Assembly: GCF_017551775.1 (NCBI RefSeq)
Contig: NZ_JAFZKX010000018.1
Coordinates: forward strand, 6,761 to 70,760
Direction of reading: 5' to 3'
Source of the DNA: Fibrobacter sp.
Lineage (GTDB): Bacteria; Fibrobacterota; Fibrobacteria; Fibrobacterales; Fibrobacteraceae
DNA: 64,000 nt
The translations under genes and the position numbers were made by a program. Shown in pieces: positions 35,877 through 41,600 of this stretch. Within the stretch, counting starts at the first letter, position 1. Each line of letters begins with the position of its first letter. Under the pieces are notes generated by a model. That model did no database searches. It saw only the letters and a list, made by a program, of their open reading frames with translations, and was not told where the DNA came from.

Positions 35877-36000
35877 CACGAATTTTGTAAACAAAAAGTT
35901 GTGGGCCCGAAGAAAAAAAATGTCGTGAGCGGGTTTTGCGCTCCCTCTTTTTCGTTTTTTGTGGTATTGTATTACGCTTTTTTCGTATATTTTGCCCGTT

Positions 36001-36780
36001 ATGTCAATTAAAGAACCAGATCAATCTGTATGGAACCGTTTTTGGCAGCGGAAAAATGACATGGGGAAGGTTTATCCGTCTTCGCCGTCCGTGCTGAACG
36101 CCATCAAGAAAAATTTTAAACTCGAGGGGCTCAAGGTGCTCGAAGTGGGTGCCGGTACGGGTCGCGACAGTGCTGAACTTGCGCGCTTGGGTGCCGAAGT
36201 CTACGTGCTCGATTTTGCTGAAAATAGCCTCAAGATTGTAGACGGCCTTCGTGCCCGCGAAAACCTTTACGAAAACCTGAAGCTGGTGCGCGGTGACGCC
36301 TTCAAGGCGCCTTTCCCCGATTGCACTTTCGATCTCGTTTTCCACCAGGGACTTGCTGAGCATTTCAAGAACTCGCTCCCGCTCATTCAGGAAAACTACC
36401 GCATCTTGAAGCATGGCGGCTGCTGCCTTTGCGATGTGCCGCAGACGGTGCACCCCTACACGATCATCAAGCATATCTTGATCGCGATGGACAAGTGGTT
36501 TGCCGGATGGGAAAAGCAGTTCACCATGGGACAGCTGAAGAAGCTGATGGTCGATGCCGGATTCAAGTGCGAATACGCCTACGGCGACTGGATGCGCCCG
36601 AACCTGTTCTACCGTATGTTGCGAGAACTCGGCTTCAAACTGGGTGTCGAACTCCCGAAGTATCCCTTGAACGGGACCATGTACCAGAAGGCGAAGGACG
36701 CTTTGCTCGATGCGCTGGTCTCTGTCCCTGTAATGCACTATACGCAGCTCTCCATCGGCGTCATCGGACGCAAGCCCTAG
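36001..36780 (+). CDS. Class I SAM-dependent methyltransferase
   Basis: VLEVGAGTG, VLDF, GDAFKAPFPDCTFDLVFHQG. TATATT lies 9 nt before ATG 36001. Confidence 0.9.
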   Translation: MSIKEPDQSVWNRFWQRKNDMGKVYPSSPSVLNAIKKNFKLEGLKVLEVGAGTGRDSAELARLGAEVYVLDFAENSLKIVDGLRARENLYENLKLVRGDAFKAPFPDCTFDLVFHQGLAEHFKNSLPLIQENYRILKHGGCCLCDVPQTVHPYTIIKHILIAMDKWFAGWEKQFTMGQLKKLMVDAGFKCEYAYGDWMRPNLFYRMLRELGFKLGVELPKYPLNGTMYQKAKDALLDALVSVPVMHYTQLSIGVIGRKP

Positions 36781-36787
36781 TATTCAT

Positions 36788-37789
36788 ATGTCGCTCCATC
36801 CCAAACTGAAGTCTTCACTTGTGTTCCTGGCTAAACTCCTGGTGACCATTGTCCCGGCGTTTTTCGTGTACAGGAATATCGTGAACGCTCCGGATTGGGA
36901 TATCGGCGATTTGTACAGGCTGTTCTCTGTGGAGGGCATCCTCCCGTTTACGTTTGCGCTGGTGTGCCTTGCCGCGTCGAATTTCACGGCGTGCCTGCAG
37001 TGGAAACTTTTGCTCGAACGGCAGGGCGTTCACCTGAACTACGGGCATCTGCTCAAGCTTTACTACGTGGGTCTGTTCTTCAACAACTTCATGCCGGGTA
37101 ACGTGGGCGGCGACGTGAAGAAGGTCTACGACATCCGCATGCAGGGCGGGCAAGATACCGTGGGCGCGGGCCTCACCGCGACGTTCTTCGATCGCCTGTA
37201 CGGTTTGTTCTTTGTTACTTTGTTTGCCCTCGCGATGGGTGCCTTGTTCTTTGTGCACGACGAGACGCAGCGTTCCTTCATCTGGCCGTCTATCTGGATT
37301 TTCCTCGGCTTCTGCGCATTGTTCGCGGGCCTCTGCAGCCGCCGCATCGGGCGCCTCTGCACGAACGTCATGTCGCGGTTCTTGCCGCAGTCCATTGGCG
37401 AGCGCCTCGTGCACATGTTCGAACGCTTTACTCATTTCCGCTCGTTCAAACTCTGGTGCCAGATTTCGCTCCTTTCTTTTGCGACGCAGGCGCTCCGCAT
37501 CTTCGTGCATTTCTACTGCGGTATCGCGGTGGGCGTTACGCTTTCTATTTCTTGGTATTTCTACTACATCCCGCTGGTCGCCATCGTGAGTGCGCTCCCG
37601 ATATCCATCGGCGGTTTCGGCCCGCGTGAACTCTTGGCGCAGACGCTCTTCGCCCGTGCCGGCGTGGCGAGCCTCGAATCGGTAGTAATCCAGCTGCTCG
37701 CTTATTTTGTGAGTTTGATTCTGAGTTTGTTTGGCGCGTTCGTCTTCCTCTTGGGAGGGAAGTCGTCGACTGCTAAGGCTGTCAGGTAA
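36788..37789 (+). CDS. Lysylphosphatidylglycerol-synthase-TM / UPF0104 flippase-like membrane protein
   Basis: QWKLLL, GLFFNNFMPGNVGGDVKK, FFDRLYGL, LPISIGGFGPRE. Confidence 0.85.
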   Translation: MSLHPKLKSSLVFLAKLLVTIVPAFFVYRNIVNAPDWDIGDLYRLFSVEGILPFTFALVCLAASNFTACLQWKLLLERQGVHLNYGHLLKLYYVGLFFNNFMPGNVGGDVKKVYDIRMQGGQDTVGAGLTATFFDRLYGLFFVTLFALAMGALFFVHDETQRSFIWPSIWIFLGFCALFAGLCSRRIGRLCTNVMSRFLPQSIGERLVHMFERFTHFRSFKLWCQISLLSFATQALRIFVHFYCGIAVGVTLSISWYFYYIPLVAIVSALPISIGGFGPRELLAQTLFARAGVASLESVVIQLLAYFVSLILSLFGAFVFLLGGKSSTAKAVR

Positions 37790-37853
37790 TTGCCTGATTT
37801 TTTTAGATAGCGGGGCGCGGAGCTAGAATCGCCCCATTCCATCGAGGTTGATT

Positions 37854-40010
37854 ATGGATGCCGAGGGCATCTTGCGCGGTCTGAACGCAGACCAGCGCGC
37901 AGCCGTTTTACACGATCATCAAAAAGGGGCGCAACTGCTTATCCTTGCGGGGGCGGGCTCGGGCAAGACTTCCGTCCTTACGAAGCGGATCCAGTACCGC
38001 ATCGCCATGGGCGTGAATCCCGAAAACATCTTGGCGCTCACGTTCACGGCAGCGGCCGCTTCCGAAATGCGGGAGCGCGTGCAGGCGCTGTTCCCCGGAG
38101 CGGGCGTGCGGCTTTGCACGTTTCATTCGCTTGCGCTCTACATGCTCAAGCAGAAAATAGGGAATGCGTTCGCTTACGAGATGGTTGGCTTCAAAAAGCC
38201 ACCCGTGCCGCAGGAATCGGCGGACCGCGACTTTATGGAAGAACTTTCGCGGCACCATGTTCGCGGGGCGAAGTTCAACCGTGAAAATCTATTCGACGAT
38301 ACATTGCAATCGAAGCTCACATCACGCCTCGGGATACTCCGGCAGTCCGTGCTCGAAAGCGGGCAGGTCGTGTTCGAGGATTTGATATTTCAGGCGATAC
38401 ACCTGCTCGAAGATCACGAAGAGGCCCGTGCGTTTTTCCAGCGGCAGTGGACGGAAATCCTGGTGGATGAATATCAGGATATAAACCCGTCGCAGTACCG
38501 CATGGTGAAGGCGCTCCTGGGGGATAGGAATAGTTTGTTTGTAGTCGGTGACGATGACCAGGCTATTTACGGGTTCCGCGGGGCAGATATCGGGAACATC
38601 AACCGTTTTTGCGATGACTTCAGGGAGAGTACGCTTATCCGGCTGGAGTGGAATTACCGTTCCACGCCGAGCATTCTGCACCTCGCCAATGACATCTTCG
38701 AAAACAAGCCGCTCAGGCTCCGCAAGGTGTTGCGGGCTGGAAATCCGAAGGGTTCGGGGGGCAACCCGATTTTCAGGGAGAATCGGCCTCCCGAGGTGTG
38801 GGTGTCCGAAACGCCCATCGAGGAAATGCTCAAGATTATCTGTAAGATAAAGGAACTGCGCGAAAGCTACGACCTCGCCTGGAAAAATTTCGCCATCTTG
38901 GTACGGTACAACCGCCAGCGCGTCTACTACGAGCAAGTCTTGCGCGATGCGGAACTGCCGATAGCGGGCGAGGAGGTGGAAGATGGTACGGTCGAAGACG
39001 GAATCCACGTAGAGACGGTGCATGCGTCGAAGGGCTTGCAGTACGCTGTGGTTTTTTATGCCGGGCTTGCCGAAGGGCTCACCCCCGGAGAGTGCGGCGG
39101 CAGCAGGCGGGAGCGGAAAAAGCAACTGGATGAAGAACGGCGGCTCTATTATGTCGGGGTCACGCGGGCTGAGGCATACCTGATTTTGTTATATTGTAAA
39201 CAGCGTTACTGGAAGGGCCGTCTCCGCAATTACAGGCGGTCGAGGTTCCTGCCCCGCAGCGCGAATAATCAGCAGGATTTCTATATGCCTATTATTTTGT
39301 TCAAAATCCGCGTTGTCGTCTTGGTACTTTCGTACATGTTCGTACATATGCTGATTCTGCCGTTTATGTTGATTTTCAGGCGCAAGGAAGTCGACCTCTG
39401 GCTGGACAAGAAAATTCAGAGTTTTGCCCGGTTCTGCATGAAGGTTTTGCGGATTGATCTTTCGGTCGAAGATCAGGCTATCCTTGGTCGTGTCGATTGG
39501 ACGCGCCCTGTGTTCGTGATGGGCAACCACAATTCGTATGCGGACATCCCGATAATTTTCCTTGCTATTGAACGTACCATAGGTTTTATCGCGAAGGCTG
39601 AATTGCGGTTTATCCCGTTCCTTGGATTCTGGATGAAGAAGATTGGCTGCGTGCTCATCAACCGCGAAAAGGGCGGCGGCGCAAAACTTATCCGCGAGGC
39701 GATGGCGAAAGGCCGGGCTCCGAGGCTGTTTATTTTCCCGGAAGGAACCCGTGGCAAGGACGAAAACATGGTCCCGTTCAAGAGCGGCGGGTTCAGGCTT
39801 GCGGCGGAGACCGAGGCTACTATTCTCCCGGTCTATATCAAGGGCTCCGGTTTTACTTGGGAACACCGCAAGGATTCCTCTCGATGCAAGGTGACGGTGA
39901 AGATTCTTGAACCTGTAGACGTGAAGGCGATGATTGCCGAACGCGGTCCGCTTGACCCGCGCAAGGACTTGATGCACCTTGTCCGCGACAGGATGGATGC
40001 GGCCGTATGA
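37854..40010 (+). CDS. Fusion of a compact UvrD/Rep-like SF1A helicase and a PlsC-like 1-acyl-glycerol-3-phosphate acyltransferase
   Basis: Helicase motifs GAGSGKT, VDEYQD, GDDDQAIYGFRGA, NYRST, TVHASKGLQY, EERRLYYVGVTRA. Then, in frame, NHNSYADI (HxxxxD), FIAKAEL, IFPEGTR. Confidence 0.85.
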   Translation: MDAEGILRGLNADQRAAVLHDHQKGAQLLILAGAGSGKTSVLTKRIQYRIAMGVNPENILALTFTAAAASEMRERVQALFPGAGVRLCTFHSLALYMLKQKIGNAFAYEMVGFKKPPVPQESADRDFMEELSRHHVRGAKFNRENLFDDTLQSKLTSRLGILRQSVLESGQVVFEDLIFQAIHLLEDHEEARAFFQRQWTEILVDEYQDINPSQYRMVKALLGDRNSLFVVGDDDQAIYGFRGADIGNINRFCDDFRESTLIRLEWNYRSTPSILHLANDIFENKPLRLRKVLRAGNPKGSGGNPIFRENRPPEVWVSETPIEEMLKIICKIKELRESYDLAWKNFAILVRYNRQRVYYEQVLRDAELPIAGEEVEDGTVEDGIHVETVHASKGLQYAVVFYAGLAEGLTPGECGGSRRERKKQLDEERRLYYVGVTRAEAYLILLYCKQRYWKGRLRNYRRSRFLPRSANNQQDFYMPIILFKIRVVVLVLSYMFVHMLILPFMLIFRRKEVDLWLDKKIQSFARFCMKVLRIDLSVEDQAILGRVDWTRPVFVMGNHNSYADIPIIFLAIERTIGFIAKAELRFIPFLGFWMKKIGCVLINREKGGGAKLIREAMAKGRAPRLFIFPEGTRGKDENMVPFKSGGFRLAAETEATILPVYIKGSGFTWEHRKDSSRCKVTVKILEPVDVKAMIAERGPLDPRKDLMHLVRDRMDAAV

Positions 40011-40816
40011 TAGGCGTTTTCGATTCCGGGTTCGGCGGGCTCACCATATTGCAGAATCTGAAAAAGGTTTTGCCGGGTTACGATTTCTTGTACCTGGGTG
40101 ACAACGCGCGTGCGCCCTATGGTTCCAGGAGTTTCGAGACCATATACCGTTATACCCTCCAGGCCGTGCGCGAACTTTTCGGCAGGGGATGCCCGCTCGT
40201 GATTCTCGCCTGCAATACGGCTTCGGCGCGCGCGCTCCGGAGCATCCAGCAAGACGTGCTGCCTTATGAATTTCCGGACAAGAGGGTGCTCGGCATTATC
40301 AGGCCCACGACCGAAGAGATTGGACGCTTCAGCAAGACGGGGCACATCGGGATTTTTGCGACCTCGGGCACGGTGTCTTCGAACAGCTACGGGATTGAAA
40401 TTCACAACTTTTTCCCGGAACTGAAGGTTACCCAGCACGCCTGCCCCATGTGGGTCCCGCTGGTGGAGTACGGGGAACGCGGTACCGAGGGGGCGGCCTT
40501 CTTTGTCAAGAAGGATGTCGACGCGCTCCTGGCCGAGGACCCGCAGATCGATACGGTGCTCTTGGCCTGCACGCACTACCCGCTTTTGGAGGCGGAGATA
40601 CGCGCCGCACTGCCACCGCAGGTTCGGCTCGTTTTCCAGGGCGATATCGTGGCCAACAAGACGCTCGATTACCTCAAACGCCACCCGGAGATGGACGCTC
40701 GCCTCTCCAAGGGCGGAAAAACGACCTATTTGACGTCCGATACTGCAAAATTCTTTGAAAAAGGCGCCTTTTTGTTCGGAATTGATGGGATATCTGCCGA
40801 ATCAGTTGTCCTGTAA
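40007..40816 (+). CDS. murI: Glutamate racemase
   Basis: IGVFDSGFGGLT, YLGDNARAPYG, ILACNTASA, LACTHYP. ATGA overlap with the upstream stop. Confidence 0.96.
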   Translation: MIGVFDSGFGGLTILQNLKKVLPGYDFLYLGDNARAPYGSRSFETIYRYTLQAVRELFGRGCPLVILACNTASARALRSIQQDVLPYEFPDKRVLGIIRPTTEEIGRFSKTGHIGIFATSGTVSSNSYGIEIHNFFPELKVTQHACPMWVPLVEYGERGTEGAAFFVKKDVDALLAEDPQIDTVLLACTHYPLLEAEIRAALPPQVRLVFQGDIVANKTLDYLKRHPEMDARLSKGGKTTYLTSDTAKFFEKGAFLFGIDGISAESVVL

Positions 40817-40902
40817 CTTATAAAAAATGTATTTTGCGATTGTAACTGACGAACCTATTTAGGTCCGCTTGTGTTTTTTTTATCATAGTGAGTAGATGTA
40901 AT

Positions 40903-41544
40903 ATGCCGAAAACACAAATCAATCTCGAAGGTTGGCAGGATTACCGAGGCAATGCCGCCGGTAGCCTGCTTTACGTGGAAACCAGTCACCAGTCCGAAAT
41001 GCCGGTGCGCGACCAGCTGAACGAAAACGGCAAGGGTTTCTTCTACGAACCGAACTACGAAACCAGCACTTACGGCCTGATGAGCTGCTGCAACGTGAAG
41101 AACATCAACGCTATCGTGCGTGCGAAGAGCCGCTACATTCTGTTCGGGACCCGCTATGAGGGCCTGAGCGATTCCGAAAAGCGCAACAAGTACCTGATCA
41201 TGGGTTACATGCGCATCGACAAGATTAAGGACGTGCGTACCCGCCACATCCAGCGCTTCATGTCCAACCCCGAACTGCAGGAACCGGAATGCATGCAGAT
41301 GGAACACAACTGGGCGGTCTACGGCCCGATGCGTTTTGTCTCGATGGACGATTCCTTCCTCGTGACCGACGAAATCCTGAAGGAATGGGGCTACAAGGGC
41401 CATGCGAGCCGCCAGCTCAAGGCCGTGTTCCAGAAGGAACACCTGGACCAGATCCTTTCTTACCTGGATTCCAAGGAAGACAAGATTGAAGAATACATCG
41501 CGATTGTCGATGAATTCAAGGAAGCCCTCGAAGAAGGCGAATAA
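40903..41544 (+). CDS. Hypothetical protein (possible PUA/EVE-like nucleotide-modification-associated fold)
   Basis: Highly codon-biased ORF with its own terminator. EPNYETSTYGLMSCC..YILFGTRY..YLIMGYMRI pattern; fold is a weak inference. Confidence 0.6.
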   Translation: MPKTQINLEGWQDYRGNAAGSLLYVETSHQSEMPVRDQLNENGKGFFYEPNYETSTYGLMSCCNVKNINAIVRAKSRYILFGTRYEGLSDSEKRNKYLIMGYMRIDKIKDVRTRHIQRFMSNPELQEPECMQMEHNWAVYGPMRFVSMDDSFLVTDEILKEWGYKGHASRQLKAVFQKEHLDQILSYLDSKEDKIEEYIAIVDEFKEALEEGE

Positions 41545-41568: not shown

Positions 41569-41600
41569 AACGCCCCCGCATTGCGGGGGCGTTCTGCTTT
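41569..41600. terminator. Intrinsic terminator between convergent genes
   Basis: AACGCCCCCGCA-T-TGCGGGGGCGTT followed by CTGCTTTT. Confidence 0.85.

Follow-up and report, generated by a model that had tools for sequence, protein, structure and literature searches.

A predicted membrane-tethered UvrD-type helicase fused in frame to a PlsC-type acyltransferase in Fibrobacter

A single gene of Fibrobacter sp. encodes a stripped-down UvrD-type helicase, a 10-residue linker and a PlsC-type acyltransferase in one protein. The gene lies in a 64,000-nucleotide stretch of DNA (NCBI RefSeq assembly GCF_017551775.1, contig NZ_JAFZKX010000018.1, positions 6,761 to 70,760 of the forward strand), hereafter the window, and all coordinates are those of the window unless a locus is named. 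The architecture was confirmed by domain, motif and coordinate analysis; it is conserved, selection acts on both of its halves, and a precursor-like state with separate helicase and plsC genes exists in another family of the same class. We consider it probable that the product is a two-module inner-membrane protein, a predicted membrane-tethered, de-repressed superfamily 1A (SF1A) motor that was joined to PlsC by a stop-loss fusion. Each half belongs to a well-known superfamily. Public databases already contain a gene model of the fusion, and our literature search, which included broader searching on helicases and PlsC, found no description of a helicase-PlsC fusion.

Architecture of the fused protein

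The gene and its product have the following features, with motif positions taken from a coordinate check.

37843-37846, + strand: Shine-Dalgarno (SD) sequence GAGG, 7 nucleotides (nt) 5' of the start codon
37854-40010, + strand: fused helicase-PlsC open reading frame (ORF), one uninterrupted frame from ATG 37854 to the stop codon at 40008-40010, 718 amino acids (aa)
37854-39254, + strand: SF1A UvrD/PcrA-type helicase module, aa 1-467, with domains 1A, reduced 1B and 2A and motifs I-VI, and a conserved SRFLP at its end
37950-37973, + strand: Walker A motif GAGSGKTS
38466-38480, + strand: helicase motif DEYQD
38547-38585, + strand: motif III, GDDDQAIYGFRGA
38958-38984, + strand: site of the absent 2B domain, aa 369-377, PIAGEEVED, placed by phmmer alignment to PcrA 1pjr
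39150-39170, + strand: motif VI, YVGVTRA
39255-39284, + strand: variable 10-residue linker, aa 468-477, RSANNQQDFY, between SRFLP and Met478-Pro479
39274-39277, + strand: internal SD-like AGGA, 7 nt 5' of the internal ATG
39285-39287, + strand: internal ATG (Met478), former plsC start codon and candidate internal initiation site
39291-39446, + strand: PlsC two-helix membrane motif, aa 480-531, with a hydrophobic alpha1 and an amphipathic alpha2 (AlphaFold2, Foldseek)
39447-40007, + strand: catalytic alpha-beta domain of the PlsC/lysophospholipid acyltransferase (LPLAT) type, aa 532-718 (PF01553, 5.6e-23)
39525-39545, + strand: HX4D motif NHNSYAD, aa 558-564
39735-39752, + strand: FPEGTR motif, aa 628-633

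An earlier note, made from the sequence alone, had read this gene as an in-frame fusion of a DNA helicase to PlsC, and our analysis bears this out. The same polypeptide carries the Pfam domains of both halves, namely UvrD-helicase (PF00580, 8.9e-61), UvrD_C (PF13361, 1e-27) and Acyltransferase (PF01553, 5.6e-23, aa 550-663), with UvrD-helicase, UvrD_C and AAA_19 covering residues 10-450. The best NCBIfam helicase models were PcrA, UvrD and Rep, and the AGP_acyltrn model matched the C-terminal part. The assignment of ATG 37854 as the start codon is supported by the GAGG 7 nt upstream and by the N-terminus MDAEGILRGLN, which is kept in orthologues. The peptide that spans the junction in this genome is SANNQQDFYMPIILFK.

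Helicase motifs I (GSGKT), Ia (TFT), II (DEYQD), III (GDDDQAIYGFRGA), IV (NYRS), V (TVHASKGLQ) and VI (YVGVTRA) are all present, and the orthologue alignment showed that they are kept across eight genera. The best sequence matches in the PDB were UvrD, PcrA and Rep (1e-60 to 1e-49), which were also the top Foldseek matches. In a phmmer alignment to PcrA (1pjr), query residues 4-103, 163-370 and 376-466 correspond to PcrA residues 6-105, 181-378 and 551-638, respectively. PcrA residues 379-550, which make up the 2B domain, are without counterpart, and about five query residues (371-375) bridge the gap; this short loop is common to all orthologues and to unfused relatives. Moreover, the 1B domain is shortened relative to PcrA, and the alignment stops at PcrA residue 638 of 724, so that the C-terminal partner-binding tail is missing and the linker and PlsC are found there instead. 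Scores against the NCBIfam equivalog models lay below their cut-offs (305 vs 911 bits for PcrA, 276 vs 965 for UvrD and 265 vs 951 for Rep). Three defining features of UvrD, PcrA and Rep are therefore absent from the helicase half: the 2B domain, the C-terminal tail and an equivalog-level score. In several species (G116, G127 and G145), an in-frame insertion of about 20-40 aa lies in the reduced 1B region, and the matches split at about residue 102-105.

In the PlsC half, the acyltransferase motifs are kept in all genera, and none of 32 orthologues departs from H559, D564 and FPEGTR. AlphaFold2 (AF2), run on a 32-sequence, genus-only alignment, placed helices at residues 480-508 and 510-531 (predicted local distance difference test, pLDDT, 80-90) ahead of the alpha-beta domain. 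Foldseek aligned the PlsC half with the whole chain of Thermotoga maritima PlsC (TmPlsC, 5kym) over 246 columns, with a TM-score (TMt) of 0.74 and a root-mean-square deviation of 4.1. The flanks of alpha1, read directly from the sequence, are rich in Arg and Lys on both sides. The earlier note had placed a transmembrane segment after the junction; the hydrophobic stretch is indeed there, but the AF2 model and the Foldseek match to 5kym fit a monotopic two-helix motif better than a membrane-spanning one. TmPlsC is without a transmembrane domain, and its alpha1 enters and exits the membrane on the same side (PMC6688108). Because of this geometry, a cytoplasmic helicase at the N-terminus should be topologically compatible with a cytoplasm-facing acyltransferase, as far as the model and the analogy with TmPlsC can tell.

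The curated model of 1-acylglycerol-3-phosphate O-acyltransferase, TIGR00530, gave the PlsC half 93.1 bits, below the cut-off of 102.95. The fused module was the top of the four sequences scored, the others being stand-alone paralogues, and the next, a paralogue of 255 aa, also fell below the cut-off with 89.6 bits. Weak matches of the PlsC half to OlsA models were also seen. The PlsC half has the motifs and the fold of the PlsC/LPLAT family, and it scores below the curated cut-off for a lysophosphatidic acid acyltransferase.

Conservation of the fusion and its origin

The fusion is kept in other Fibrobacter: a full-length frame with no stops was found in 24 of 24 other genomes of the genus, at 65-90% identity. 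When each half was searched separately in a phylum-wide sample of 151 genomes, 54 of the 55 Fibrobacteraceae genomes, representing seven genera, had the two together in a single open frame of 700-820 aa. The sole exception, G170 (family f1, genus g10, 98% complete), matched neither half at the thresholds used, which may reflect loss or an assembly gap. A fused protein of 673 aa also occurs in G025, a single genome from a sister family (f2) within this order (L013, 700-2721, - strand). This protein is without the whole 1B region (window residues ~76-171), and at its junction the Met lies one residue later and has no SD-like motif. A search of 1.84 billion representative proteins turned up the fusion in only about five clusters at 50% identity, and the next matches are lone helicases of 420-540 aa.

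Pairwise ratios of nonsynonymous to synonymous substitution rates (dN/dS) lay at 0.05-0.12 in the helicase, at 0.03-0.18 in PlsC and near 1 in the linker. These sequence comparisons indicate strong purifying selection on both halves and a roughly neutral linker. Between genera, the helicase half is 58-67% identical and the PlsC half 42-49%; since the helicase half is the better conserved of the two, it is no decaying remnant. The earlier note had offered a recent stop-loss as one explanation of the fusion, and this is refuted by its presence throughout the genus, in all but one of the family genomes and in one sister-family genome, together with dN/dS values of 0.03-0.18.

Unfused pairs were found in family f5 of the same class (three genera, six genomes: G110, G133, G137, G140, G168 and G172), where a 2B-less helicase of 503-544 aa is followed on the same strand by an adjacent plsC gene of about 240 aa. 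The stop codon of the first gene overlaps or abuts the start codon of the second, as GTGA in G133 and G168, as ATGA in G140 and as TAG directly followed by TTG in G110. Met478 of the fusion aligns with the start of these separate plsC genes. The f5 pairs, which belong to uncultured Fibrobacteria (for example, the metagenome-assembled genome JANYDA010000009.1), share gene order and strand with the modules of the fusion, but they yield two polypeptides, and their helicase ends in a basic C-terminal tail of its own, 30-50 residues long. Their flanking genes are unlike those of Fibrobacter (a response-regulator/HATPase_c_2 gene, lipoyl synthase and pseudouridine synthase), and only the pair itself is shared. 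At three f5 loci from three genera (L057, L058 and L059), a divergently transcribed gene lies ahead of the pair and encodes both a response-regulator receiver and an anti-sigma kinase-like HATPase_c_2 domain. A receiver-domain gene also lies near the G025 fusion.

Because separate, adjacent and overlapping helicase and plsC genes exist in family f5, the fusion most likely arose, as far as sequence comparison indicates, from a translationally coupled pair by loss of a stop codon in an ancestor of Fibrobacteraceae; the linked but separate genes are what a 'Rosetta stone' fusion of an operonic pair leads one to expect. This most economical reading agrees with the stop-loss proposed in the earlier note, except that the event is ancient. 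In the helicase tree, the fused family clade has an unfused metagenomic protein of 503 aa (P0167) as its strongly supported sister, while the tree does not settle the order of the major groups. The fused f2 helicase (G025), on a long branch, falls outside the fused f1 clade (approximately unbiased (AU) test, p = 0.016 with P0167 left outside). A second, independent fusion in f2 is not claimed, since the AU result is distrusted and the deep order of the groups is not settled.

Unfused 2B-less short helicases from metagenomes (P0167-P0308) end 15-30 residues past SRFL in basic, partly hydrophobic tails with a mean net charge of +3.3, and the hydrophobic moment of these tails, which were examined for a membrane-targeting amphipathic helix, is not above that of shuffled controls (mean z 0.41). 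In G026 (family f3; L055, 3230-5380, - strand), the short helicase lies in an ORF of 716 aa with an N-terminal extension of 270 residues that has no Pfam match; the extension is perhaps another kind of fusion partner, or the ORF may be over-extended.

Proposed function and rival explanations

We propose that the N-terminal 467 residues would form a minimal SF1A motor, with all ATPase and DNA-binding motifs and without the autoinhibitory 2B domain. Because the two-helix motif of PlsC is predicted to dip into the cytoplasmic leaflet, both modules would face the cytoplasm, and the helicase would be held on the membrane surface via the PlsC anchor. The retained plsC start codon, often accompanied by an SD-like motif, may also yield free PlsC. 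Both activities are presumably retained, the covalent tether itself may be under selection, and the motor would act on membrane-near DNA or RNA-DNA hybrids. The earlier note had suggested a membrane-tethered helicase that links DNA transactions to lipid synthesis; the architecture it envisaged is supported by the motifs, the 10-residue linker and a monotopic anchor with its N-terminus on the cytoplasmic side, and a mechanistic link is hypothetical.

The linker was never broken in 42 genes: it contains no stop and no frameshift, and every length change is in frame. Its length is 9-12 aa in 40 of the 42 orthologues and 28 aa in the remaining two, both from Fibrobacter species (L049 in G123 and L050 in G081). 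With the third-position tree length of 22 substitutions per site over the 42 genes as the neutral yardstick, roughly 45 nonsense events would be expected in a neutral linker, against 0 observed; this is a rough estimate. The uninterrupted linker is no proof of selection on the tether itself, because a stop codon might lower PlsC translation.

The internal ATG with AGGA 7 nt upstream, to which the earlier note had drawn attention, is present in the sequence as described. In each of the 42 fused genes, the PlsC module begins with a start codon (41 ATG and 1 TTG, with a one-codon shift in two). An SD-like 4-mer occurs at -17 to -5 in 22 of 37 distinct upstream sequences (59%), compared with 11.5% at control internal in-frame ATGs, although the sequences are mutually related and thus a non-independent sample. 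The motif is found despite differing linker residues, as GGAG where these are Pro-Glu, AGGA where they are Lys/Gln-Asp and AAGG where they are Gln/Lys-Gly. The genome does use SD sites: SD-like 4-mers peak at -11/-10, and 39% of crude starts carry one. Separate synthesis of PlsC from the internal start therefore seems plausible on sequence grounds, with the balance leaning only slightly in its favour. The Met-Pro at the junction could also persist for structural reasons. One representative protein of 244 aa (P0173, 59% identical) has the junction Met as its first residue (MPLLLYRIY...) and is complete at the C-terminal end; either the gene was called on a contig that is cut off there, or the two modules are truly split in this case.

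Several observations weigh against a tethered two-module protein with a role of its own. The stop-free linker could reflect a need of PlsC translation for ribosomes that read through from the helicase. AF2 modelled the PlsC half well but the helicase core poorly, with an overall mean pLDDT of 67, a predicted TM-score (pTM) of 0.41 and pLDDT below 50 at residues 1-39, 226-304 and 390-440. In addition, the genome carries seven PF01553 genes, that is, six besides the fusion, as well as full-length UvrD-like paralogues, and neither half is therefore obviously the sole housekeeping copy. Finally, at least eight further families of the phylum have the short helicase far away from the best plsC homologue or on a different contig, so their pairing is lineage-specific and no general rule.

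The fusion could accordingly be mechanistically meaningless: two coupled but unrelated enzymes would have merged, the merger would have been tolerated because the N-terminus of PlsC is cytoplasmic, and it would have been kept because a stop lowers PlsC, leaving an ordinary soluble helicase in function. The 4-nt overlap of the unfused state means that a small change suffices to produce such a merger, and the linker is short, variable and neutrally evolving. The absence of the pairing from most of the phylum's families that have the short helicase points the same way, as do the retained start codon and SD-like motif, which suggest that PlsC can still be made alone. However, the pair or the fusion persists across families in which the flanking genes are otherwise unrelated, and not one fission was seen in the 42 orthologues, even though the start codon, usually with an SD-like motif, would make a split cheap. 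Moreover, soluble UvrD, PcrA and Rep rely on a 2B domain and a partner-binding tail, both of which this helicase has lost. On this evidence, we regard a meaningless fusion as rather unlikely.

We also regard as unlikely the specific proposal that the covalent tether is functional in that it confines a de-repressed, 2B-less motor at the inner face of the membrane. In UvrD1, helicase activity is unmasked when 2B is deleted, and growth slows when UvrD1-delta2B is overexpressed (PMC13646824); membrane confinement would therefore be a reasonable rationale for a natural 2B-less motor. A motor tethered in this way would find its substrates in DNA or R-loops close to the membrane, such as at sites where transcription, translation and insertion of membrane proteins coincide, or it might couple chromosome transactions to envelope growth. 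If this is true, the protein would represent a new class of membrane-anchored SF1A helicase that is physically linked to phospholipid synthesis.

Alternatively, the helicase may have taken on a new role as a regulatory ATPase, or as a sensor of nucleic acids, and adjust the activity of the acyltransferase, coupling membrane synthesis to replication or to the energy state. The very short linker would bring the 2A domain of the helicase next to the membrane helices of PlsC, and murI, also a gene of envelope growth, shares a transcript with the fusion and is translationally coupled to it. However, the motifs for single-stranded DNA binding and translocation (Ia, III, IV, V and the pin region ahead of SRFL) show the same degree of conservation as the ATPase motifs, which is expected of a working translocase and not needed by a mere switch. 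We know of no precedent for a helicase acting as an acyltransferase-regulating ATPase, and we consider this explanation improbable.

A part in a Gabija (GajB) or DRT-type anti-phage system was also considered, as the PADLOC GajB and DRT helicase models match at 1e-66 and GajB is likewise a compact UvrD-like ATPase (~495 aa) similar in length to the helicase half. These models match any UvrD-like core, however, and the fusion differs from Gabija in being joined to PlsC and in having neither GajA (an OLD-family ATPase-TOPRIM nuclease) nor a defence island at its locus. No GajA/OLD nuclease or reverse transcriptase gene adjoins it, its neighbours are envelope genes, and it is conserved vertically at a fixed locus across the family, unlike mobile defence islands. 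With the partner gene and the defence context absent from the locus, this very improbable role was rejected. An assembly or sequencing error, a pseudogene or a stop-loss confined to this genome can be dismissed almost entirely, given the same open frame in independent genomes and metagenomes at 50-95% identity and purifying selection on both halves.

Neighbouring genes and comparison with known systems

The genes and signals around the fusion are as follows.

35959-36780: class I methyltransferase, upstream neighbour
36788-37789, + strand: LPG_synthase_TM (PF03706), a 'flippase-like' membrane protein, the 5' neighbour in several Fibrobacteraceae genera
37781-37798, + strand: weak hairpin with a T-run, after the LPG_synthase_TM gene
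37802-37829, + strand: promoter-like site TTTAGA-16-TAGAAT from a consensus scan (9/12 matches; weak evidence)
40007-40816, + strand: murI, glutamate racemase (Pfam Asp_Glu_race), whose start overlaps the stop codon of the fusion by 4 nt (ATGA)
40888-41544, + strand: conserved protein of 218 aa, no Pfam match
41569-41593: strong terminator hairpin, after the gene of the 218-aa protein

The methyltransferase, the flippase-like protein and murI, all named in the earlier note, were found by Pfam at the places it gave. Their assignment to a single operon was partly upheld: the fusion and murI are tightly coupled, but the rest is looser, and the hairpin with its T-run and the promoter-like site split LPG_synthase_TM from the fusion. 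The gene of the 218-aa protein and the terminator probably form the end of the transcription unit. This protein is 87-95% identical within the genus and 68-74% across genera, and is more conserved than the fusion.

murI stands beside the fusion in genera g1, g11, g12 and g14 and was not found beside it at the loci checked in g10, g13 and g15. The block of LPG_synthase_TM, fusion, murI and the 218-aa protein is complete in g1, g12 and g14, and the remaining genera examined have only part of it or none. The gap between the methyltransferase and LPG_synthase_TM genes is 8 nt here and about 1.1 kb, with one more gene, in several other species (scored at loci L019, L021, L022, L029 and L030). Because of this intervening gene, the methyltransferase is a non-fixed member of the cluster.

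A possible record of expression comes from F. succinogenes S85, in whose envelope-enriched proteome FSU_1128, a 'DNA helicase', was detected by three unique peptides at 4.8% coverage (PMC6851124, supplement). FSU_1131 of the same strain is a UbiE/COQ5 methyltransferase, which fits both the position of the gene in G118, a genome on a single contig of 3.8 Mb, and the gene order there, namely fusion, LPG_synthase_TM, one gene and methyltransferase. From gene order and position, FSU_1128 is the probable orthologue of the fusion.

UvrD-family helicases are thought to need 2B for their regulation, and artificial deletions are unrestrained and harm the cell (PMC13646824). Here a natural 2B-less version has persisted over a very long period, and one bacterial family has it joined to an enzyme of membrane lipids. 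Should the tether matter, confinement would be a way of taming a 2B-less motor, and an unsuspected physical link would run from nucleic-acid processing to membrane synthesis. If it is irrelevant, the gene is a well-documented neutral operon fusion with a retained internal start. In addition, the fusion protein offers a natural system for studying 2B-less SF1A motors.

The SF1A 3'-5' DNA helicases UvrD, PcrA and Rep (PDB 1pjr, 2is1, 3lfu and 1uaa) share with the fusion the RecA-like core of domains 1A and 2A and motifs I-VI. They differ from it in having the 2B domain and a C-terminal tail, which is Tudor-like in UvrD, PcrA and UvrD1, whereas the fusion has a reduced 1B domain and a membrane enzyme where that tail sits. 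Rep-delta2B is, like UvrD1-delta2B, an engineered 2B deletion, and both resemble the fusion in their 2B-less UvrD-family core. These two are laboratory constructs, however, whereas the 2B-less form of the fusion is natural, ancient and predicted to be membrane-tethered.

The closest structural counterpart of the other half, T. maritima PlsC (5kym), is a lysophosphatidic acid acyltransferase that shares the two-helix motif and the whole-chain fold at ~27% identity; the 477-residue N-terminal extension occurs only in the fusion. Membrane-held nucleic-acid motors are otherwise represented by FtsK/SpoIIIE, ComFA of the competence pore and the DEAD-box helicases associated with RNase Y/E. Like the proposed tethered helicase, they place an ATP-driven motor at the cytoplasmic face of the membrane, which is an analogy and not homology: these motors belong to other superfamilies (the FtsK/HerA clade of ASCE ATPases, or superfamily 2), and none of them is known to be anchored via a lipid-synthesis enzyme.

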